From NCBI GenBank assembly GCA_023384025.1, contig JAHDXX010000001.1, positions 1-53,048 on the forward strand: a stretch of 53,048 nucleotides of DNA. The letters run 5' to 3'. This DNA comes from Sphingomonadaceae bacterium. Its GTDB lineage: Bacteria > Pseudomonadota > Alphaproteobacteria > Sphingomonadales > Sphingomonadaceae. Made by a program: the position numbers and the translations under genes. Below, in pieces: positions 41,786 through 53,048 of this stretch (position 1 is the first letter of the stretch; every line of letters starts with the position of its first letter). The notes under the pieces are model-generated. The model made no database searches. It worked only from the letters and a program-made list of their open reading frames with translations, and was not told the origin of the DNA.

Positions 41786-42388
41786 TCAGCGAAGATGCCG
41801 TGAAGGACAGGCAAGTGCTGCGGCGTGTTCGGTTGGCACCCCCAGTCCGGTCAGGCCCAGCACCAGCATGTCGGACAGCCGCTGCGCGGCTTCTGCCGGG
41901 CCGGGCTGCTGCTCGACCAGGTTGATCACCAGGATCTGGCACAGGCCCAGCCAGTAGAGGACCTGCTCGCAGGCAGCATCGATATCCTGTTTCAGCCCCT
42001 TGTTGCGCGGGTGTGCGCGGGCCGTCGCCGGTGTCTGGCTGCGCAGCAGCACGACCGTGCGCCGGGGATGGTCGAGCGCAAACCGGGCTGCGACGCGCAT
42101 GCCGCCGGCGATCCGTTCGACAGGGTCTGCGATTCCGGCATTGGCGGCAGCAACCTCCATTTCGACGGCCATGCGCACTTCTTCGGCGACCGCGATGGCA
42201 AAGTCCTTCTTGTCCGCGAAGTGGTTGAAGAAGCTGCCCTTGGCTACGCCGGCCGCTGCCACGAAATCGTCAATCGGGATCGCGTCGATCGGCCGCTCGA
42301 CCATCAGGTCAAGCCCGGCTGTGAGCAGGGCCGCACGGGTGCGGGAGGTTCGGGCAGGGCGTGGTCGCGGGGCGGGTCGGGTTGCCAT
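41786..42388 (-). CDS. TetR-family transcriptional regulator
   Basis: RTRAALLTAG...IDDFVAAAGVAKGSFFNHFADK HTH. Confidence 0.9.
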   Translation of the reverse strand: MATRPAPRPRPARTSRTRAALLTAGLDLMVERPIDAIPIDDFVAAAGVAKGSFFNHFADKKDFAIAVAEEVRMAVEMEVAAANAGIADPVERIAGGMRVAARFALDHPRRTVVLLRSQTPATARAHPRNKGLKQDIDAACEQVLYWLGLCQILVINLVEQQPGPAEAAQRLSDMLVLGLTGLGVPTEHAAALACPSRHLR

Positions 42389-42401
42389 CCATCAAGCCTA
42401 C

Positions 42402-42443
42402 TTGACTAAACGGTCAATTGCAATCATTATGACCAAATAGTCA
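42402..42443. promoter_or_regulatory. twin TetR-type operators overlapping a sigma70 promoter
   Basis: Palindromes TTGACtaaacgGTCAA (42402-42417) and TGACcaaataGTCA (42430-42443); TTGACT-N17-CATTAT. Confidence 0.72.
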
Positions 42444-42467
42444 GATACGAATCGCAGGGAGAGCGCG

Positions 42468-43487
42468 ATGCCGGTCATCAGGGTGGAAGACATTGCCCAT
42501 GTGCGCTTTGCCGCGCCCGATCTGGCGGCAATGCGCGCATTTCTGGAGGATTTCGGATTGTCCTGCTTCGAGCAGGACGGGCGGCTTTATGGCCGGGGGA
42601 CCGATGGCCGCCCCTTTGTTCACGTGACCGAGCCGGGTGAGGCACGCTTTCTGGCGGTCGGCCTGCGGGCGGAGTCCGTCGCCGACCTTGAACGTTTGGC
42701 CACATCGGAAGGCGTACCGGTGGAAGATTTGGCGGAGCCGGGCGGCGGGCGGATCGTCCGGCTGACCGATCCCGACGGATACCGGGTCGAAGTAGTCGCG
42801 GGCCAGGCGTGCGAGGCGCCGACCGTGCCGTTCGCCGATCCACCACGCAACACGGCGGCAGAGCGCCCCCGGCAGCGGGCGAGCGTGCGCCTTGAGCCTG
42901 CCCCGGCCCACGTTCGCCGGATCGGCCATGCCGTGCTCAAGGTGCGCGACTTCCGCCGCAGCGAGGCATGGTACAAGGAACGGTTCGGGTTCCTGACGTC
43001 GGACGAGGTGGAAGCGGCGAAGGATGTGCCACTGGGCGCCTTCATGCGCTGCGACCGGGGTAACAAGCCGGCCGATCACCACACGCTGTTCCTCGCGCAG
43101 CTGCCGGGCGAACTCGGCCTGCTTCATGCCGCTTTCGAAGTCGCCAATCTCGATGACCTGATGCTGGGCCACCAGCACCTGAAAGCGCGCGACCGCGAAG
43201 CTGCCTGGGGTGTCGGGCGGCATATCATGGGTAGCCAGGTGTTCGATTACTGGAAGGACCCGTTCGGCAACGAACTGGAGCACTGGACCGATGGTGATCT
43301 GTTCACCGCCGCCGATCCGCCGCAGAAAATGCCGATGAGCGCGTTGCTCGCGGTCCAGTGGGGCAGCCCGCACCCGATGATGGCAGGCAAGCTCGCGCCG
43401 CCGCCCGGCCTGATCGCCTTCGTTACCGCAATGCAACTGCGCCTGAAGCGCCTCTTCCGCCGACAGCCCAAAGGAACCCCCGCATGA
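42468..43487 (+). CDS. VOC-family extradiol ring-cleavage dioxygenase
   Basis: IAHVRF, RIGHAVL, LLHAAFEV, WGVGRHIMGSQVFDYWKDPFGNELEH. Confidence 0.85.
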   Translation: MPVIRVEDIAHVRFAAPDLAAMRAFLEDFGLSCFEQDGRLYGRGTDGRPFVHVTEPGEARFLAVGLRAESVADLERLATSEGVPVEDLAEPGGGRIVRLTDPDGYRVEVVAGQACEAPTVPFADPPRNTAAERPRQRASVRLEPAPAHVRRIGHAVLKVRDFRRSEAWYKERFGFLTSDEVEAAKDVPLGAFMRCDRGNKPADHHTLFLAQLPGELGLLHAAFEVANLDDLMLGHQHLKARDREAAWGVGRHIMGSQVFDYWKDPFGNELEHWTDGDLFTAADPPQKMPMSALLAVQWGSPHPMMAGKLAPPPGLIAFVTAMQLRLKRLFRRQPKGTPA

Positions 43488-44323
43488 AACTCTGCACCTA
43501 CACCTCCGATGGACAGACCCGGACCGGGATCGTGGTAGGCGAGACTGTAATCGACACCGGCGTGCCCGGCACGATGATCGACCTGATCCGCGACTGGGAT
43601 GCGTTGAAGCCGCAGCTCGAAGCAAAGGCGGCGGCGGGGGTCGGGGTGCCGTTTGCATCCGTGAAGCTGGAGGCGCCGGTGCAACGGCCCGGCAAGATCT
43701 TTGCCATCGGGCTCAACTACGCCGACCATATCGAGGAATCGAAGATGGGCACGCCGGAACGGCAGGTGTGGTTCACCAAGGCCCAGACCAGCGTCAATGG
43801 CCCGTTCGACGAGATCGAAATCGCGAAAGGCACGATGACGGCCGATTATGAAGCGGAACTGGTCGCGGTGATCGGCAAGGGCGGCAAGCATGTCAGCGCC
43901 GCTGATGCCCCCGCTGCCGTGTTCGGCTATTGCGTCGGGAACGATGTGACTGAGCGGATGTGGCAGCATGCGGTGCCGCAATGGTCGCTCGGCAAGAGCT
44001 TCGACACGCATGCGCCGATGGGCCCGTGGATTGTGACTGCAGACGAGCTGGGCGACCCGCACGGTCTCGGCATCCGCTGCTTCGTCAACGGCGAAAAGCG
44101 GCAGGATTCGAACACGAAGCATCTGGTGTTCAATGTCAGGCAGCAGGTCGAGCACCTGTCAGTCGGGATGACGCTGGAGCCAGGCGACTGCCTGTTCACC
44201 GGCACCCCCGGCGGGATTGGCGCAGCGATGGACCCGCGCCAGTTCCTGCAACCGGGCGACGTGGTGCGGACCGAGATTGACGGCCTCGGCCATATCGAAG
44301 GCACGATGGTGGCGGAAGGCTGA
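43484..44323 (+). CDS. fumarylacetoacetate hydrolase family protein
   Basis: IGLNYADH, DYEAEL, GNDVTER, GKSFDT, TGTPGG. Confidence 0.93.
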   Translation: MKLCTYTSDGQTRTGIVVGETVIDTGVPGTMIDLIRDWDALKPQLEAKAAAGVGVPFASVKLEAPVQRPGKIFAIGLNYADHIEESKMGTPERQVWFTKAQTSVNGPFDEIEIAKGTMTADYEAELVAVIGKGGKHVSAADAPAAVFGYCVGNDVTERMWQHAVPQWSLGKSFDTHAPMGPWIVTADELGDPHGLGIRCFVNGEKRQDSNTKHLVFNVRQQVEHLSVGMTLEPGDCLFTGTPGGIGAAMDPRQFLQPGDVVRTEIDGLGHIEGTMVAEG

Positions 44324-44328
44324 TCGCG

Positions 44329-45366
44329 GTGGTGCGCAAGGTCCTGTTTGCGGCACTGGCGCTGCTGATTGCGGGTGGGTCACTCGCATGGTTCAACCGG
44401 GACAGGCTGGTGGACCGTGCGATCCAGGCGCGCCTGCAGCAGGAACCGGACACGAGCTTCCTTGACGACAAGGACAGGATCCGCGTGCTCGTATGTGGCA
44501 CCGGGTCGCCTGAAGTCAGCAGCGCGCGGGCGCAAGCGTGCACGCTGGTGGCGGCGGGCGGCAAGATGTTCCTGTTCGATGTCGGGGACGGCTCGGTGCA
44601 TTCCCTCGCGCAATCGCGCATTCCCGTCAACCGGCTGGAACGGGTGTTCATAACGCACTTCCATTCGGACCATTTCGGCGACCTTGCCCCGCTGATCAAC
44701 GCGGGCTGGATCTGGGGGCGCACCACTCCGCTGGAGGTGCAGGGGCCGATCGGGATGAAGCAGGTGCTGGATGGCATCGCGCAGGCCTATGCCCTCGACG
44801 AACAATATCGCAGCGCCAACATGCCGCATCTGGCCAGGAACCGCGCGGTCGCATTCGGTGTGCCGCTGGAAGTCGAGTTTGCAGAAGGCCAGCGCGCGGT
44901 GCGCGTTTACGACAAGGACGGCGTGACCATCGACGCGACGCTGGTGGCGCACGATCCGGTCAAGCCGGCGCTCGGTTATGTTTTGCGTTACAAGGGCCGC
45001 AAGGTGTTCGTCAGCGGCGACACCGAAGTCAGCCCGGTCAATTTCGAGGCGATGCGCGATGCCGACCTCGCGATTCACGAATCCTACGCAGCGCACATGG
45101 TCCGCCGTGCGATCCCGCAGATGAAGACGCTGGGCATGGACTTCGAGGCGGAAGTGGCGGAGCGCACCATTCCCTATCATGCCGACAACATCGCGCTGGC
45201 GAAGCAGGCAGAAGAAGCGGGGGTCAAGCACCTGCTGCTCACGCACCTGATTCCATACCCGGACAGTTTCGTGGTCCGCCGCATGTACACTGAAGGCATG
45301 GGCGAACACTTCAAGGGCAAGCTGACCGTGGCCGAGGACGGCATGGTGCTGGTGGTCGGCGAATAG
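44329..45366 (+). CDS. MBL-fold metallohydrolase (RNase Z/AtsA-like), N-terminally anchored
   Basis: CGTGSP, THFHSDH, SGDT, HES, LTHLIP; hydrophobic N-terminus. Confidence 0.87.
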   Translation: MVRKVLFAALALLIAGGSLAWFNRDRLVDRAIQARLQQEPDTSFLDDKDRIRVLVCGTGSPEVSSARAQACTLVAAGGKMFLFDVGDGSVHSLAQSRIPVNRLERVFITHFHSDHFGDLAPLINAGWIWGRTTPLEVQGPIGMKQVLDGIAQAYALDEQYRSANMPHLARNRAVAFGVPLEVEFAEGQRAVRVYDKDGVTIDATLVAHDPVKPALGYVLRYKGRKVFVSGDTEVSPVNFEAMRDADLAIHESYAAHMVRRAIPQMKTLGMDFEAEVAERTIPYHADNIALAKQAEEAGVKHLLLTHLIPYPDSFVVRRMYTEGMGEHFKGKLTVAEDGMVLVVGE

Positions 45367-45395
45367 GCTTGCGCGGTCTTAGGAAGGGGGGGGCC

Positions 45396-46472
45396 ATGAA
45401 AGTTGCGATCATCGGCGGCGGTTATGCCGGGTTCAATCTGGCCCGCCTGCTCGACACACTTCTCGACGTCACGCTGATCGAGGCGCGCGAGGCGTTCGTG
45501 CACAATGTCGCGGCGATCCGGGCGGCGGTGGAGCCTGCCTTGCTCGAACGGATCGTTCTTCCCTACGACCGTTTGCTCAAGCGTGGCCGTGTGGTGCAGG
45601 GGCGCGCAGTAGCGATCAAGGCAAACTGTGTGCAGTTGACGGACGGCACGGAGGTCGAAGCCGACGCGGTGGTAGTCGCGACCGGCTCTCATTACGCCGC
45701 CCCGTTCAAGCCGCAAGCCGACAGCGCGGCGGATTTCAGCGAGCAGATGCGGGCGGTATCAGCGCAAATTGCCGGTGCCGAACAGGTCGTGATCGTCGGC
45801 GCGGGCGCAGTCGGTGTCGAGCTGGCTGGCGAAATCAAGGCGGCATACCCCGCCAGACAGGTCGCACTGGTGTCAGACCAGCCGCAGCTGTTCCCGATGT
45901 ATCCTGTCAAGCTGCATGACCGGCTGGTCGAGCGGCTGGCCGCACTCGGTGTGGCGTTGCATCTGGGGCAGGCGGCAAGCGGTCTGGCGCAAGTCTCCGC
46001 GCCTTACGATGGCGCAGTCACGCTCGCTGACGGGACGCAGCTTGTTGGCCTGATCGTCCCCGCAACTGGTGGGCGGATCGCGGAATCCCCGGCTCATGTG
46101 CTGCCGGGCACTGTCCGCCAGCACAATGGACAGCTCGCGGTCGACGCATGGCTGCGTCCGTCCAGTCTGCCGCGGGTATTCGCGATCGGTGATCTGGCGG
46201 CAACCGGTGAGGGGATGACGGTGGTCTCGACCATGCGCCAGACCCCGTGGCTGGCGAAGACCCTGCGCAAGCTCGCCCAAGGGACCACGCTCGAGGATCT
46301 GCCGCCATATGCGCGCTGGAAAGTGCCACCGATCCTGCTCCCGCTCGGCCCTGCTCGCGGGGCAAGCGTCCTGCCGCTCGGGCAGGGGATGGTTGTGGGC
46401 GACTGGATGACGTCGATGATCAAGGGGCGGCACCTGTTCATTCCGCGCTACCACAAGGAGTTCGGGCGATGA
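45396..46472 (+). CDS. FAD/NAD(P)H oxidoreductase (AIFM2/NDH-2-like)
   Basis: IGGGYAG, VATGS, VGAGAVGVELAGEI, FAIGD. Confidence 0.87.
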   Translation: MKVAIIGGGYAGFNLARLLDTLLDVTLIEAREAFVHNVAAIRAAVEPALLERIVLPYDRLLKRGRVVQGRAVAIKANCVQLTDGTEVEADAVVVATGSHYAAPFKPQADSAADFSEQMRAVSAQIAGAEQVVIVGAGAVGVELAGEIKAAYPARQVALVSDQPQLFPMYPVKLHDRLVERLAALGVALHLGQAASGLAQVSAPYDGAVTLADGTQLVGLIVPATGGRIAESPAHVLPGTVRQHNGQLAVDAWLRPSSLPRVFAIGDLAATGEGMTVVSTMRQTPWLAKTLRKLAQGTTLEDLPPYARWKVPPILLPLGPARGASVLPLGQGMVVGDWMTSMIKGRHLFIPRYHKEFGR

Positions 46473-47920
46473 ATTTCGACTGCGACGTTCTCATCGCCGG
46501 GGGCGGGCCGACCGGGGTGACGCTGGCTGTCCTGCTCGCGCGGCGCGGGGTCAGGGTGATTGTCGCGGAGAAGGAAGCGGACATCTACCCGTTGCCGCGT
46601 GCAGCCCATATCGATCATGAATGCATGCGCATCCTGCAAGAGGCCGGGGTGGCGGGCGAGGTCATGGCGGGCAGCCGCCGCGCCTCGCGCTACGATTTCC
46701 TCAACGCCAAGGGCGACGTGCTCCTCCGGTTCGAAGGCGCGGAGCAGATCGGGGCGGGCGGATGGCCGGTCGCCAACATGATTCACCAGCCTTCGGTCGA
46801 AGCAGCATTGCGGCGAGTGCTGGCAGGTCACGACAATGCGGTACTGCACAGCCGGTGGGAACTCAACGGGTTCAGCGATGATGGCGAAGGCATCACCGCG
46901 CGGCTGGCCACGCCCGGTGGCGAGCAGGTCGTGCGCGCGCGTTACCTTGTCGGGGCCGACGGAGCCCGCTCGCCGGTGCGGGAGACCTCCGGTATCGTCT
47001 TCGACGACCTGAACTTCGAAGAGCCGTGGCTGGTGGTGGATGTGCTGGTCGATGACTACGCCCGCTTGCCAGCCGAGAACCTGCAGATCTGCGATCCCGA
47101 ACGCCCGACCACGTGCGTGCTGATGGGGGAAGGACGGCACCGGTGGGAGTTCATGATCAAGCCGGGCGAAACGGCAGAGCAGGTCAGCGAGGACGCCTTT
47201 ATCGAGATGCTGCTTGAACCCTGGAATGTGAAAGGGGCGGTGCGGATGGAGCGCAAGGCGGTCTACACGTTCCGCGCGCGGGTGGCGCAGAAATGGCGCA
47301 AGGGCCGGGTCCTGCTGGCGGGCGATGCGGCGCACCAGACGCCGCCCTTTGCCGGGCAGGGCATGTGCGCCGGTCTGCGCGATGCTGCCAATCTGGCGTG
47401 GAAGCTGGCGGCAAGGGTGAATGGCGGCGCGCCGGATGGCCTGCTCGACAGCTATCAGGTCGAGCGCGAACCCCATGTCCGCGCGACCATCGCGATGGCG
47501 ATCATGATGGGGCGGACCGTCTGCATCACGAGCAAGTGGGGTGCGTTCCTGCGCGACATGAAATTCCGCCTTGCCCGCGCTCTCGGCAAATTGCCGGACG
47601 GCCCGCCCGCCTATCCACCGATAACGCGCGGAGCGATCATGACGGATAGCGCCGGTGCAGGCGCCTATTTCCCGCAGACCGTGACCCAGGATGGCGCGCG
47701 GCTCGACGACATGTTGGGGCATGACGCCAGCCTGATCGAGCGGGCCCGGCTGGCAGAACTTGGGCCGTTTGCCGACGGAGTCCTGAACTGGCTGGATGCG
47801 GCGGGCACCGACGCCGTGCTGGTCCGACCGGACCGGGTCGTATTCGGCAGCGGAGACCCTGGGGCCTTGCGCACGAGCTGGCACAAAGCAACCGGGGGAT
47901 GCCCTGCGCAGGTTTGCTAG
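46469..47920 (+). CDS. MhpA-like FAD-dependent aromatic hydroxylase
   Basis: GGGPTG, LPRAAHIDHE, GADGARS, GDAAHQTPPFAGQGMCAGLRDAANLAWKL, VRPDR. Confidence 0.9.
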   Translation: MNFDCDVLIAGGGPTGVTLAVLLARRGVRVIVAEKEADIYPLPRAAHIDHECMRILQEAGVAGEVMAGSRRASRYDFLNAKGDVLLRFEGAEQIGAGGWPVANMIHQPSVEAALRRVLAGHDNAVLHSRWELNGFSDDGEGITARLATPGGEQVVRARYLVGADGARSPVRETSGIVFDDLNFEEPWLVVDVLVDDYARLPAENLQICDPERPTTCVLMGEGRHRWEFMIKPGETAEQVSEDAFIEMLLEPWNVKGAVRMERKAVYTFRARVAQKWRKGRVLLAGDAAHQTPPFAGQGMCAGLRDAANLAWKLAARVNGGAPDGLLDSYQVEREPHVRATIAMAIMMGRTVCITSKWGAFLRDMKFRLARALGKLPDGPPAYPPITRGAIMTDSAGAGAYFPQTVTQDGARLDDMLGHDASLIERARLAELGPFADGVLNWLDAAGTDAVLVRPDRVVFGSGDPGALRTSWHKATGGCPAQVC

Positions 47921-48006: not shown

Positions 48007-48354
48007 CTAGCCAATTGGCAGGGTATCGTGCTCCTCCACCGTGCTCGCTGAATGATGCCACATTCGGCACAACTCGATTCGCCGGGTGATTCCAAGCTTT
48101 GCAAAGACCTGGCGCAGGTGGCTTGAAACAGTCCACGGGCTGATGTCCAGCGAGCGGGCGATTTCCTTGTTTGACAGGCCTTCGTAGACTCCAATCGCAA
48201 TCTGGCATTCCCGTGGTGTCAGGACGCGGTCAAGATGATGATCTTGCGCGAGAAAATCTCGATCAATCGGATTCTCGATCACTGCCGGTGCGGCCGGGTC
48301 CGAAGTTAACCCGGCAACCGATTCGTATCTCTTGATTTTCGCTCCGTTAATCAA
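48007..48354 (-). CDS. stand-alone LuxR-type HTH regulator
   Basis: LTPRECQI...GLSNKEIARSLDISPWTVSSHLRQVFAKL. Start uncertain. Confidence 0.82.
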   Translation of the reverse strand: MINGAKIKRYESVAGLTSDPAAPAVIENPIDRDFLAQDHHLDRVLTPRECQIAIGVYEGLSNKEIARSLDISPWTVSSHLRQVFAKLGITRRIELCRMWHHSASTVEEHDTLPIG

Positions 48355-48413
48355 TTTTATCCGTCCCGATTAATTGTTTCGTGAACGCGATCGGAAACTT
48401 TCGGTTATGTTTT

Positions 48414-49529
48414 TTACGCTCCCTTGCGCAAGGGAACTACGTTACTTTGCTTATGCTTATCGATGATTGCAAGGCCGACGGATTCGGCACTTGTCCGCCA
48501 GTCATCGCAGTCGTCAATGATTGCTTCGAGGAAGGCCTCGAAGTCGATCCTGACATTGGTGAGGAGGTGATCTTCCGCCAGCCATGACAGGATGTTGCGG
48601 CCCGAGGTCGCCAGTCGACTGCGCTGCGAGGCATTGGATGCTTCGCCCAGGTAACGCTTCTGGATTTCTTCCAGCACGTCCCATCCGTTGTCCGCGCCAA
48701 ACAGGCTGATGATGTCGCTCGCGCCGAGGATTTCGAAGGCCTCGCGCAGCAGGATCATCACCTCGCTTCGCAACACTGCGATATGGCCGTAGCTGACCTG
48801 CTTCAGGTTGTGTCGCAGATCGAGACCAGCCCGGCGGACCACGGCCATGCTGCCGAAGGTTTCGCGCGAGCCGTCAGGGCGCAGCACTTCCGACACCCGC
48901 TTGTCACCGAAATAGCGCGAGACGTGCTCGCAGAAGTTGCTCAGCAGGCCGTGGAAGGCTGCATTGGGCTGCGATCCCGGCGGTACACTGGCATCGGTAT
49001 AGCCGAACACCTTCCGGTAAGCGGCAAACCTGTCGCCCGCAGTGTAGCGCAGCACCCGCTTGCGATCGAACTGGTAGAGCGCCATTGCCCCTGGCCCGTC
49101 CGACAGCCTGACTTCACCCGAACGGAAGAGCTTCTGCAGTCGCAGTATCGCGCGGAAAACACCGGCCCGTTCGTGCTGGTAAATGTAGTAAAGGTCGCCA
49201 ACTGCGCGGACTCGCTCGCGGCGGACCGCGTTGTCGTAGTTGGGCAGCAGGCTGGGCGGAGGTGCTTCGCCGACAGTACCGGCGATATCCGGGCCGAGCC
49301 CGATCAGTCGCGCCAGCCCCCCGTCGGCATCGCCATTGCCCAGCGCACCAGCCTGCGTCAGCAGATCGCTGGCGCTGGCAATCCATTCGGCAATGATCTC
49401 GCTGTTCGGGCTGGCCGCAAGTTCGTCACGTGCATCGCGAACCAGCTGCGTCCGGACTTCTTCAAGCTTCGCCAGCAGTTCGTTGTACTCGGCCAGAGTG
49501 TGGATCGGGCCCTGTTCTTCGTTGCTCAT
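48414..49529 (-). CDS. hypothetical alpha-helical protein (371 aa)
   Basis: GAGGAG RBS before ATG 49529; globular composition; in operon. Confidence 0.8.
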   Translation of the reverse strand: MSNEEQGPIHTLAEYNELLAKLEEVRTQLVRDARDELAASPNSEIIAEWIASASDLLTQAGALGNGDADGGLARLIGLGPDIAGTVGEAPPPSLLPNYDNAVRRERVRAVGDLYYIYQHERAGVFRAILRLQKLFRSGEVRLSDGPGAMALYQFDRKRVLRYTAGDRFAAYRKVFGYTDASVPPGSQPNAAFHGLLSNFCEHVSRYFGDKRVSEVLRPDGSRETFGSMAVVRRAGLDLRHNLKQVSYGHIAVLRSEVMILLREAFEILGASDIISLFGADNGWDVLEEIQKRYLGEASNASQRSRLATSGRNILSWLAEDHLLTNVRIDFEAFLEAIIDDCDDWRTSAESVGLAIIDKHKQSNVVPLRKGA

Positions 49530-49560
49530 CGTCTTGGCTCCTCTTGGCTCTGGTGCGGGA

Positions 49561-51204
49561 TCAGGATCCCAGGCGATTGGCGAAACCGGCACACTTGCGG
49601 GCAATGACTGCAAGGCCGGCGGTATTTTCAGCGACGTCGCTGGCGGTGCCATCGAGCTCGAACTCGCGGAGCGTCTCGGCGCACGCGGCGAGCACACCGG
49701 CGATGGTCGTCAACTCGCTGGCCAGCCCGGCCATGGCCATGCGGCCATAATCCTGCGCTGCGCGATCGCGCTCTGCGAACGGGGTGGCGACATTGATCAG
49801 CCAGACCAGACTATCGGCAAGACCGTTCCCGAGGCTTTCAAGGCTTTCAGCGCTGTCCGGTACGCACAGATCGATGCTTTCCCACAGGTTGAGGGTATCG
49901 GCCATGTCGACACTGGCGAGCTTGTCGAGTGTGGCCCGGGCTGTCAGCACGGCCCGCTCGAGCGTGCGTTCGAGGCGGTAGCCGACTTCGGCGTCGCTGC
50001 GGAAGGTTGCGGCCCGACGCAGGCGATTGTGGATGGTGTGGACCAGTCGGCCGACTTCGACCACTTCGCTGCGGAGTTCCTCGCGCACGACACCGCTCTG
50101 GGACAGTGTGACGGCATCCGCGCCGAAGGGCTCGGCATCGTCGCCGCACAGCCGCTCGGCACTGGTGTCGATTTCCACACCGATAGCTGAAAGATACTCG
50201 ATTGCCTCGCGCGCCAGCTGTTCGGACTTGATGGTTGCCTGGCCGACCGGGATACCCTGCGGTGAAGCGGCAAGCGCGCGGATTTCGTCCAGCCGGCGCT
50301 CGACCAGCTGACGGGTTCGAGGGGCTCCGCCCGGCAATCCGGGGCGCTCGACGAACCGTAACTGGCTGTCGATCCCGTCGAGCGTCGCCGAGAGTTGCTC
50401 AGCGGCAAAGGCAATTGCCTGCGCGTCAACCGCAACCCGCCCCGCCAGAGCTGCGGACTGCGTGCGGAAGCCGCCAGTGGGTCGAATGCGGCGACGCACT
50501 GCGATGCCGGTCTCGGTGGGATAGGTTTCGTATCCGTCGCGCAGGGCGCGGATCAGCTGCTCGGTCAGCCGACCGTCGGTCTCATCTCCGGCATCGAGTG
50601 TGCCTTCGCGATGTGGCAGGCCCAGCCGGTCGAGACTGGCAATCAGCTGGCTGGCGACAGTGTTGGCGCGCACCTGCGGCACTTTGCCAGGGGCGGACCG
50701 GAACATGCCACCTGGACGCAGCGCAGGCGCCTTCATGCTAGCGGTATTGGCCATCGTCTCTTCTCCTTCATGATCTTCGAAGTCATCGCCGAATGCTTCG
50801 CATGCGCTCAGCAAGGCGTCGTTGGCGCGGGCGAGTTCCTGCAGGTCGGCGATAATCGTGCCGGCAGCGACGGCATTGCCGCTTTCCTCTTCCGCTTCGG
50901 AATGCATGTCGCCTGCGACGGGGCTTTCGACCACGGTCTGGCGGATATCGTTGGCGAGGCGGTAAGCACGGGCTACAGCGGCCGCAGTAACCTTCATTTC
51001 GCACAGTTCCTGCACCCGTTGCTGCAAGCCCGGCAGTACAGCATCGAGATCGTCGATGCTTGCCCGTGCGCCATGCGCATCGACGAAGGCCTTCTGACTC
51101 ATCGCCAGCCGGTCAAGGCTGCGCTTGCAGCGCGCCCTCGCGCGTCCAAAGCCGGCGGCCGCCTGCACGAAGTCATTGCCGGTCCGGTTGGTCTGAGCGG
51201 ACAT
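49561..51204 (-). CDS. hypothetical helical/coiled-coil protein (547 aa)
   Basis: Starts 3 nt after the upstream stop with AGGAG/GAGG RBS; Ala/Leu/Glu/Arg-rich. Confidence 0.75.
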   Translation of the reverse strand: MSAQTNRTGNDFVQAAAGFGRARARCKRSLDRLAMSQKAFVDAHGARASIDDLDAVLPGLQQRVQELCEMKVTAAAVARAYRLANDIRQTVVESPVAGDMHSEAEEESGNAVAAGTIIADLQELARANDALLSACEAFGDDFEDHEGEETMANTASMKAPALRPGGMFRSAPGKVPQVRANTVASQLIASLDRLGLPHREGTLDAGDETDGRLTEQLIRALRDGYETYPTETGIAVRRRIRPTGGFRTQSAALAGRVAVDAQAIAFAAEQLSATLDGIDSQLRFVERPGLPGGAPRTRQLVERRLDEIRALAASPQGIPVGQATIKSEQLAREAIEYLSAIGVEIDTSAERLCGDDAEPFGADAVTLSQSGVVREELRSEVVEVGRLVHTIHNRLRRAATFRSDAEVGYRLERTLERAVLTARATLDKLASVDMADTLNLWESIDLCVPDSAESLESLGNGLADSLVWLINVATPFAERDRAAQDYGRMAMAGLASELTTIAGVLAACAETLREFELDGTASDVAENTAGLAVIARKCAGFANRLGS

Positions 51205-51207
51205 GCC

Positions 51208-52545
51208 TCAACTCCTTTCCAGCGTGGCGTAGAAATTCCGGGTGATCGCCTCAGGCGAAGCCTTGCCCCGCGCCAGTGCCAGGCGTGCGGCGCCAATCAG
51301 GAACCGTTCCGGCAACACTCCGGTCGAGAGCCCGCTTTCGAGCCGCTCGGCCCCTTCGGCCGTCACCTGGGCGTGGCGGGGCTGGTAGTGGACGACATCG
51401 ATCATGGCCTTGTCACCCAGTTCCGGCATCGGGGTCAGCACCATGGCTTCCACGGCCGCTTCAATCTGCTTCGGCAGATCCTTGCGCAGGATTTCAGGCA
51501 GTGTTCGCCACACGCTGGGCGGATAGAGCGCATCCCACGCCGCCCGGAAAGACTTCGCATCTTCACCGAAGCCCATCCGCTCAAGCAGATGGAGGTTGAG
51601 GGGAACGCGGACCAGCGGGGTTGGATGGACAGCGTCCTCGGAAAAGGCCGAGGTCTGTGCAACCGAACGTCCGACAACGTCCATCAGTGCGCCGACGTAG
51701 GCCGGCCCGATCAGCAGGGTACCAACGAGATCGGCCCAGGATTCCTTGTGCCAGCGCATCCAGATCGAGGCGGCGGCCGGCGGCAGGCCCCGCTCAGCGA
51801 ATCTGCTCTGGATACGTCTTGGCATGACCTCCCACAATCCGAGGTCGCTCTGCATGTTGTGAGCGACTTCGTGCGGTACCGCGCCCAGTGACCATGGATT
51901 GATCAGCCGGTGGAAGGGGATCATCACCAGCGGGAACGGATTCTCGCGCCGCCCGAGCTTGCTCAGCCTGACCCCCCGGCGGAAGGTGGCCGGACCGAAG
52001 CCGGTTTCGACATAGGCGAACGGAGTGGGGCTGGGTATCGAGCGCGCCTTGCCAAGCTCGAGATAGACCGCGCGGTAGCAATCCAGGGCGATCCGGTCGA
52101 TCCCGGAAAGCATCTGGCCAAACGGACCGGTGCGCTGGTTGAACAGGTTCAGGTAGTACTCCCACACCTTCTCGCCCTGTTGCGCGATCCCGTGCAGGCG
52201 CTCCTTGTGAGTCAGCAAGGCCTGCGTTGCGGCTGCACCTGCGCCGGTGCGAACGGCCTGTGCCGCCGCAGCCAGTTTCCGCTCCTCGGACCTGACGAGG
52301 GAGTGCACGGCGCCGAGCAACTTGTTGACCGCGGCGATATGGGCCGGGCTGGGGCTGGCCGGACCAGTCCCGAACTGTCCGACCCGGAACTGTGCCATGC
52401 CGCGACCGTAGCGGTCGGCGTTGACCAGAGTGCGAAGGGCGAAAAAGCGGAGAGCAGGCGGAATGGCGGCCTGCGCAGCGCCTGTGGCCGGGCCGGGCTG
52501 TGAAGCCTCGGGCGGGGCGCGTTCGAGGAGTTTGGCGGGCATCAT
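51208..52545 (-). CDS. putative gluzincin zinc metalloprotease
   Basis: PHEVAHN (HExxH), ESWAD (third-ligand ExxAD), VHPTP..R. Confidence 0.75.
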   Translation of the reverse strand: MMPAKLLERAPPEASQPGPATGAAQAAIPPALRFFALRTLVNADRYGRGMAQFRVGQFGTGPASPSPAHIAAVNKLLGAVHSLVRSEERKLAAAAQAVRTGAGAAATQALLTHKERLHGIAQQGEKVWEYYLNLFNQRTGPFGQMLSGIDRIALDCYRAVYLELGKARSIPSPTPFAYVETGFGPATFRRGVRLSKLGRRENPFPLVMIPFHRLINPWSLGAVPHEVAHNMQSDLGLWEVMPRRIQSRFAERGLPPAAASIWMRWHKESWADLVGTLLIGPAYVGALMDVVGRSVAQTSAFSEDAVHPTPLVRVPLNLHLLERMGFGEDAKSFRAAWDALYPPSVWRTLPEILRKDLPKQIEAAVEAMVLTPMPELGDKAMIDVVHYQPRHAQVTAEGAERLESGLSTGVLPERFLIGAARLALARGKASPEAITRNFYATLERS

Positions 52546-53048
52546 GACGCGGCGAGCTCGAATGCTGCCAGCGCTTCTGCTTCAGCGGTTGCGAGTGATG
52601 GAGATCGCACGGGTTCTTGCGACACCATCGGAAGATTTTCGAATGATGCGTGTCGATCGCCTCGCGTGCTTTCGCCGAGCAGCGCCAGTGCGGCGACGGC
52701 GGCCACCAGGAATGGTTTGGGAAAGATCGGGGCAGACCATAGCTTGCCGAAGAAGTCAGCCCAAAGGGGCTTGGCAGACCGGTCGATGACAGCACGGCGG
52801 ACCAGCAGTTCAGTTGCGAAATGGCCAAAGAGGGCCGGCCCTGGATCACCGCTGGTCGACTTTGCCAGTGTAGAGCCGATCTCGCCGGCCAGGCGCGCGA
52901 CTTCGAACCAGCGCACCCACAGTACCGCGCGCACGCGATTGATAACGCTGGACTGGTTTCCCAATCCGGGCGGAAACGCAGGGAAGCGCGCGGTGAGCGT
53001 GCGGATCGTCTGCTGCGAGGGGCGGGCGGCAAGACGCAGGGCGCTGCG
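52542..53048 (-). CDS. hypothetical protein (5' end outside window)
   Basis: The frame of ORF 52542..52964 stays open to the window edge; ATGA overlap with the protease gene. Confidence 0.65.
   Translation of the reverse strand, partial: RSALRLAARPSQQTIRTLTARFPAFPPGLGNQSSVINRVRAVLWVRWFEVARLAGEIGSTLAKSTSGDPGPALFGHFATELLVRRAVIDRSAKPLWADFFGKLWSAPIFPKPFLVAAVAALALLGESTRGDRHASFENLPMVSQEPVRSPSLATAEAEALAAFELAAS

Follow-up and report, generated by a model that had tools for sequence, protein, structure and literature searches.

The window analyzed here, 53,048 nucleotides from a Sphingomonadaceae bacterium (GenBank assembly GCA_023384025.1, contig JAHDXX010000001.1), is an entire contig (C42) that ends within an operon built around ZN, a predicted zinc protease. 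Joined to the end of a second contig, C149, the full operon is predicted to consist of genes for the charge-segregated protein ACID, an Arg-rich open reading frame (ORF), ZN, the helical protein SCAF, the all-helical core protein P371 and a LuxR-type regulator. Operons of this kind make up a conserved system that, as far as tested, has not been described before and that brings with it several new protein families. We tentatively propose that the operon encodes a lysis-released, protease-matured antibacterial assembly, free of signal peptides, that would attack the envelope of neighboring cells.

Conservation of the gene set was assessed in 83 loci identified through their ZN gene: 3 came from genomes, and the other 80 were the best of 538 metagenome hits. 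Their ORFs were clustered, and removal of duplicates sharing the same ZN end left 77 distinct loci. The presence of ZN follows from this selection, and the denominators of the counts are the loci with room for the gene in question. ACID lies upstream of ZN in 50/50 loci, with two ACID genes in 31/39. A 185-residue helical gene follows ZN in 55 of 64 loci, the canonical scaffold core is found in 30 of 34, P371 lies downstream in 34/34, and the LuxR gene is present in 20/20. Many loci also contain an M20 peptidase (17/28) or an amidohydrolase (19/28), at least one of the two being found in 23/28; the M20 dipeptidase matches NF006053 above the cut-off. Glutamate decarboxylase, a label that is our reading of the sequence, occurs in 6/20. 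The original prediction had treated these genes at the end of the window as one operon under LuxR control. Neighborhood mapping supports a conserved unit: dozens of loci share the gene order and content, which makes the observation more than chance. The pairwise identities of ZN and P371 co-vary (Spearman 0.92, 43 loci), implying that the unit is inherited whole. An SxWTV signature is common to 39 of the 43 LuxR neighbors, and on this sequence evidence the LuxR gene is part of the system. We found no homology between the core families.

The operon is rare and patchy, and its flanks vary between genomes. With the own genome counted in both sets, P371 matches occur in 5/401 genomes of the family, 3 with this operon type, and in 3/401 genomes of the phylum, 2 with this operon type. 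None of four same-genus genomes has a P371 match, and ACID is found outside the operon in 0/400 other genomes of the class. The candidates scored include 734 ZN and 1961 P371 clusters, and the named hosts are Alphaproteobacteria, Paraburkholderia, Chloroflexi and Acidobacteria. No relatives of P371 were found in IMG/VR or the phage set, so a viral origin is unsupported. A description of the gene set was not found in the literature searched, a search mostly without subscription papers. The gene set is absent from the available parts of the text of PMC7159879, PMC8195603, PMC3482391 and bioRxiv 10.1101/2025.11.14.688446, and the accession and DUF terms are absent from the files searched of the PMC8195603 and PMC7159879 supplements, which comprise all but one of those of PMC8195603.

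ZN carries HEVAH from residue 225, E268 and D272 (ESWAD) 38 residues after H229, and an HP pair 34 residues further on. The original prediction had recognized this set as intact and of gluzincin type, and it is kept across the whole family: HExxH, ExxxD and HP are correctly spaced in 204/204 ZN sequences, where the 80 metagenome loci were partly chosen by the ExxAD motif and a separate set of 120 ZN proteins was not. In an alignment of 53 sequences reaching down to 19% identity, H225, E226, H229 and D272 are invariant and E268 is nearly so; the third-ligand Glu is invariant in alignment A1. The structure model of ZN is a confident one (predicted local distance difference test score, pLDDT, 87.6); a bundle of three helices and a pair of short strands lead to the HExxH helix, followed by the E268 helix (residues 256-279). 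The match lists of Foldseek and VIA are filled by the N-terminal bundle and leave the catalytic part unprobed. The nearest named Atlas clusters are M48, M56 and U49, with feature scores of 0.76-0.77 and template modeling (TM) scores of 0.27-0.34, below the Atlas bar. The window ZN has no match to Pfam M48, M56 or U49, and none of the three is among the 25 families listed for 53 members, for which the best peptidase signal is Zn_peptidase (5/53, E 0.0046). ZN, P371 and ACID also have no match by sequence in the PDB. With the M48, M56 and U49 gluzincins ZN shares HExxH, the third-ligand ExxAD helix and a downstream HP..R pattern, which we take to be a gluzincin feature. It differs from them in being soluble, in its N-terminal three-helix bundle and in forming a family of its own, with 2273 representatives at E ≤ 0.001. 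ZN is thus best described as a predicted protease of a new family, gluzincin by motif.

ZN also appears to be part of a wider unnamed zincin family of about 460 residues. Distant homologs (26-27%) lie in clusters on rhizobial plasmids (L086:6064-19318 and L087:103-13960), which also hold genes for CHAT/caspase-like, phospholipase D, patatin, S8, C25 and ATP-binding proteins.

Five co-oriented genes, an ATGA overlap (52542-52545), a 3-nucleotide gap (51205-51207) and a 31-nucleotide gap with a strong ribosome-binding site had been described for the window, together with continuation past its edge. All of these features are present in the sequence, and the 5' half of the operon, including the ACID gene, was assigned to the end of C149, where the proteins encoded by a relative's locus map. 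C149 ends in the same 13 bases with which reverse-complemented C42 begins, and the frame stays open across the putative join. Two close relatives (L001 and L099) have the same genes on a single contig, and contigs from two public runs reach beyond the window end. The Arg-rich ORF, also found in these two relatives, takes the position that the second ACID paralog has in most loci; as an ACID paralog it was rejected (0.6% in the homology comparison). The LuxR gene product matches Pfam GerE (PF00196) at 65.2 bits against a cut-off of 23.5 (E 4e-18). The other four window proteins match no Pfam, NCBIfam or PADLOC family, apart from a trace of DUF5902 (E 0.11), and the nearest named homologs of the window proteins are hypothetical proteins of Erythrobacter and Sphingomonas. 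The absence of evident signal peptides also stands, since a hydrophobicity screen, though crude, detected neither a signal-peptide-like nor a Tat-like N-terminus in any family. RNA contigs contain only short, low-depth pieces, for the operon and its neighbor alike, and a scan for promoters and terminators gave no signal above shuffles.

ACID proteins are 220-400 residues long and strongly charge-segregated, with Glu-rich low-complexity spacers, at least one amphipathic segment and a conserved basic C-terminal domain. The acidic spacers end in E-x-|FF before a cationic amphipathic helix, which carries a glycine zipper, found in 89 of 111 ACID proteins. In the 38 copies where the pattern located the junction, the helix is preceded by GEQ, GEE, TEQ or similar. 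The helix of the operon's own ACID copy, FGKIWNGVKKVAKAVAPL (start FFGKIW), has a net charge of +4 and a moment of 0.58 and is flanked by segments of net charge -7. ACID looks like a masked membrane-active peptide and may be the natural substrate of ZN. The original prediction had instead named the 547-residue SCAF and 371-residue P371 as substrates of the protease; nothing indicates that, and the ACID proteins appear to be better candidates. Cys-rich tails (CxC/CxxC) are present in 43/111 ACID proteins, for example L018:1426-2415 and L022:8780-9922, and some spacers are His-rich; metal binding or cross-linking is a possible role for both.

In most loci, the next gene after the 185-residue one encodes a conserved helical core with extensions that vary (359-1273 residues). 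Eleven of 15 long scaffold homologs match SdrD_B, CarboxypepD_reg, Big_3_5, TIG, Qn_am_d_aIII or PASTA, and the swappable domains are Ig-like, transthyretin-like, TIG or PASTA, that is, extracellular-type beta-sandwiches. The window has a single 547-residue ORF at this place. It joins the scaffold family only by way of intermediates: its C-terminal part compares with the scaffold core at 0.4% directly and at 78% (E 1.7e-5, 339 columns) once intermediates are added. The N-terminal part (residues 1-150) was rejected as an equivalent of the 185-residue gene by homology (hhalign 2%), and only positional equivalence is kept. A Shine-Dalgarno (SD)-like site precedes the matching Met in the window and in L001, L099, L105, L002 and L005, but not in L004, and in L006 there is no Met in the range tested; among control internal ATGs, 1/57 has such a site. 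The internal start at ATG 50754 is predicted to yield a second product of 397 residues, and the 547-residue ORF probably represents two fused genes, with the short core still being made.

The model of P371 is all-helical (pLDDT 72.7). Fold searches gave a best Foldseek E of 0.2 and a best VIA Z of 7.5, with a root-mean-square deviation of 6.5 over 152 residues, while the best Atlas value, 0.85, is a lead only. A complex prediction for the P371 dimer scored 0.01 against a mark of 0.42. Gly, Trp, Leu, Phe and Arg account for most of the conserved residues, a pattern that suits a structural role. Distant homologs of P371 mark two further operon types, and a protease is always present in the loci examined.

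The second operon type (L097 = G083:C8, L098 = G226:C16 and L107, with the related L108) has two P371-like genes and an S8 subtilase, a C70 papain or amidase protein, a Trypco2-like protein (weak match), a prenyltransferase-like protein and four paralogous helix-plus-beta-hairpin proteins that by eye resemble beta-pore formers. ACID was considered as a relative of the beta-hairpin proteins and rejected, as there is no homology. In Burkholderia pyrrocinia this type has a sigma-54 regulator and DUF3467 upstream, and on a cyanobacterial plasmid a P371-like gene follows S8 and peptidoglycan-binding genes. The third type (L106:7157-15208, G657:C5) consists of a ZN-like protein, unknown proteins of 588 and 276 residues, a P371-like protein, an unknown protein of 278 residues, DUF4438 and a 229-residue protein with a Cys-rich, acidic start.

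Between P371 and the last M20 or amidohydrolase gene, 12 loci contain a total of 18 variable genes, here called inserts. Many share a Glu-rich tag: a tag score of at least 9 is reached by 8/18 inserts, compared to 0/38 M20/amidohydrolase and 0/123 flanking genes. A regular-expression form of the tag matches 11/18 inserts, 94/111 ACID proteins and 21/1830 genes of the own genome, where no further tagged gene elsewhere is convincing. Pfam matches were obtained for 8/18 inserts, namely Amidase_2, PG_binding_1, OmpA (two, weak), Beta-lactamase2 (two), trypsin and Het-C, so the matched inserts mostly contain peptidoglycan-binding or peptidoglycan-cleaving domains or are proteases. The trypsin in L067 (the same in L072) has Thr/His pocket residues, presumably a mark of Glu-specific proteases. 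Other downstream genes encode M35, Extensin-like_C and OmpA, with M74 on the opposite strand. Three tagged inserts (L036:14510-15217, L059:14991-15662 and L065:13313-13996) look by eye like restriction-endonuclease folds and have no informative Pfam match; in some inserts of this kind the tag is at both ends.

In the mechanism that we envisage, LuxR would turn the operon on. The Glu-rich segments would neutralize the cationic helices and also serve as a sorting tag, bringing ACID and the tagged enzymes to an assembly of scaffold and P371. ZN would then cut at the acidic junctions and unmask the membrane-active helices, helped in some loci by the trypsin that looks Glu-specific. The target surface would be chosen by the variable scaffold domains, and the M20 dipeptidase, amidohydrolase and glutamate decarboxylase beside many loci may clear or recycle the freed acidic peptides. 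The placement of acid-masked cationic helices next to a conserved protease points to arming by cleavage, and interchangeable enzymes that share a short tag with core proteins suggest loading onto a common carrier. Extracellular-type domains and peptidoglycan enzymes without signal peptides would need a non-Sec exit or a breached membrane. The purely cytoplasmic role of the original prediction fits poorly with the Ig-like and PASTA domains of the scaffold homologs and with the peptidoglycan-directed inserts. We also count in favor of an antibacterial assembly that the second operon type pairs a protease with amidase or peptidoglycan-binding genes and that the operon is patchily distributed. The window holds a minimal version without tagged enzymes, in which ACID itself would be the payload. 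A wider and more doubtful proposal is that the operon represents a new class of bacterial particle that delivers toxins and has no phage-tail parts. Its body would consist of P371 and the scaffold, swappable Ig-like domains would aim it, Glu-rich tags would load wall enzymes and mask lytic helices, and the new gluzincin would arm it. P371 would then be the shared core of at least three protease-gated machines (zincin/ACID, subtilase/beta-hairpin and zincin/DUF4438).

Several points weigh against a released weapon. We infer all of cleavage, assembly, release and toxicity. The core contains no immunity gene, holin or endolysin, and no structural match among those listed supports a pore or shell fold for P371. 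The signal-peptide screen depends on start calls as well as being crude. Inserts are found in 12 loci only, and the window operon and several alphaproteobacterial copies have no tagged ones; 10/18 inserts have no Pfam match, 10/18 are below the score threshold, and both score and regular expression were set after examples had been seen. The M20/amidohydrolase (23/28) and glutamate decarboxylase (6/20) genes look catabolic, which is unexpected in a weapon and needs an extra assumption.

The same catabolic genes speak for a storage granule. In such a granule the Glu-rich and Arg/Lys-rich ACID proteins would condense as a ribosomally made store of nitrogen, glutamate or metal, which ZN would mobilize together with the catabolic enzymes. 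The charge segregation of the ACID proteins and the His-rich character of some of them also agree with storage. We nevertheless regard it as improbable, since it leaves the variable adhesion-type domains, the tagged wall enzymes and the conserved amphipathic helix with its glycine zipper unexplained, and the catabolic genes are absent from the window operon. Somewhat more probable, but still rather unlikely, is an envelope program directed at the producer itself, with scaffold and ACID, matured by ZN, giving a coat, cyst, biofilm layer, controlled autolysis or vesicle release. The Ig-like and PASTA domains and the peptidoglycan binders suit a coat no less than a weapon, no immunity gene is seen, and solo GerE-type regulators govern coat genes in Bacillus. 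However, the inserts differ between loci and include Het-C-like and M35-like enzymes, a variation that suits conflict better than morphogenesis, and the distribution is patchy even within the genus.

Another alternative is an intracellular program of cell death or anti-phage defense. Triggered ZN would cleave ACID, the helices would disrupt the producer's own membrane, the scaffold domains would sense and the wall enzymes would finish lysis. We consider this unlikely, if more probable than the coat and the granule. Several observations speak for it. Peptidase_U49, which we take to be the Lit abortive-infection protease, is among the named clusters nearest to ZN; distant ZN homologs lie amid CHAT, phospholipase D, patatin and ATP-binding genes; the second P371 operon type has its weak Trypco2 match; and all parts are without signal peptides. 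Membrane effectors unleashed by a protease are established in Pepco and EACC1, according to the available part of bioRxiv 10.1101/2025.11.14.688446. On the other side, PADLOC 2.0 gives 0 families for the four non-LuxR window proteins, and LuxR matches only the helix-turn-helix (HTH) part of CARF models. Among flanking ORFs, 121 of 145 listed ones being scanned, 3/121 have PADLOC matches (1e-20; two partial mad3 and one SoFic), placing the loci outside defense islands. The core has no nucleoside triphosphatase (NTPase) or nucleotide sensor, and a dedicated transcription factor fits an induced program better. The likeness to Pepco/Trypco and EACC1, as far as that preprint is available, lies in a protease gene beside a non-enzymatic amphipathic-helix protein that cleavage would unmask. 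There, the proteases are trypsins, caspases or subtilases fused to sensors, whereas the protease here is a metalloprotease; its operon includes several structural genes and a LuxR gene and lacks a sensor NTPase, and the loci lie outside defense islands.

The original prediction could not match the operon to any named system and allowed for accessory genes of contractile injection. The first part stands, and we find the second, in the form of accessory or cargo genes of an extracellular contractile injection system (eCIS) encoded elsewhere in the genome, very improbable and largely refuted. The insert repertoire does overlap the cargo of Photorhabdus virulence cassettes (PVC), for which the available part of PMC3482391 lists Tox-OmpA and Het-C as toxin domains, and eCIS markers are present in 1/5 carriers. 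Yet Pvc16_N and eCIS_core (DUF4157) are absent in 4/5, including G000 and the single-contig, 100% complete G018, and no family of tail genes (tube, sheath or baseplate) recurs in the 83 loci. Judging from the same part of that paper (Zhang et al. 2012, PMC3482391), PVC/eCIS and the ZN operons have in common a zincin-type protease tied to variable OmpA-like and Het-C enzymes without signal peptides, and the usual absence of immunity genes. They differ in that tail, sheath and baseplate genes are missing here, ZN is a stand-alone protein of 445 residues and not a fused DUF4157 domain, and the feature shared by the cargo is the Glu-rich tag. The zincin and FxSxx-COOH systems (Kaur et al. 2020, PMC7159879, in the part available) likewise place a gene of zincin type next to that of a precursor, and one kind of precursor is acidic. 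The precursors in question are of small size and linked to VMAP/FtsH ternary systems and radical-SAM enzymes, and ACID has its conserved basic domain and greater length; no MoxR, vWA or radical-SAM family recurs in ZN loci. The classical layout of polymorphic toxins is not seen either, as each variable enzyme has a gene of its own and carries no more than a short tag, and no immunity family recurs. By analogy, the system would work most like PVC cargo delivery and protease-activated membrane effectors, yet it lacks the defining features of both. Two further analogies are with precursors of animal antimicrobial peptides, in which an acidic pro-region masks a cationic amphipathic helix as we suppose for ACID, and with R-bodies, which are lysis-released protein machines without signal peptides. 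Both are analogies only, with no sequence or structure link found.

If the antibacterial assembly is real, it would provide a new way of delivering antibacterial enzymes, with a loading tag that is short and portable and a lytic helix that is genetically encoded and acid-masked; tag and helix may be useful for protein delivery. The machine is in any case widespread and multi-gene, with core proteins that have no family, name or fold. Even if one of the alternatives is true, there remain a new gluzincin family, a new helical core fold that three types of operon share, and a nested gene whose internal start is conserved.

Table 1. Positions of the operon features in the window and on contig C149.
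Feature	Position	Strand	Remarks
ACID, 288 residues	C149:20635-21501		First operon gene, after a guanylate-kinase-like gene (label from our reading of the sequence)
3' part of basic Arg-rich ORF, about 400-450 residues	52542..53048	(-)	Open at contig end; 5' part at end of contig C149
ZN, soluble predicted gluzincin-type zinc protease, 445 residues	51208..52545	(-)	N-terminal three-helix bundle, then H225-E226-x-x-H229, E268-x-x-A-D272, H307-P308
SCAF, helical protein, 547 residues	49561..51204	(-)	Residues 151-547, divergent scaffold-core member; residues 1-150, N-part
Predicted internal in-frame start in the 547-residue ORF	50752..50768	(-)	AAGGAG 50768-50763, ATG 50754 (Met151)
Intergenic gap of 31 nucleotides with GAGGAG ribosome-binding site for P371	49530..49560	(-)	Before ATG 49529
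P371, conserved all-helical core protein, 371 residues	48414..49529	(-)	Distant homologs in two other protease-containing operon types
Solo LuxR/GerE HTH regulator, SxWTV subfamily, 115 residues	48007..48354	(-)	TTG start uncertain

Two other regions of the window stand out. A cluster for the catabolism of aromatic compounds (41786-47920) converges on the LuxR gene, with a TetR-like regulator, a glyoxalase/dioxygenase, a hydrolase and an FAD monooxygenase among its members. Positions 20059-41639 form a mobile region of lower GC content, unrelated to the operon, that encodes a histidine-kinase-like ATPase, a MobA relaxase-helicase, two tyrosine integrases, an N6 methylase with HSDR_N, a GmrSD protein fused to Schlafen/AlbA_2, an HNH nuclease and a nucleotidyltransferase.

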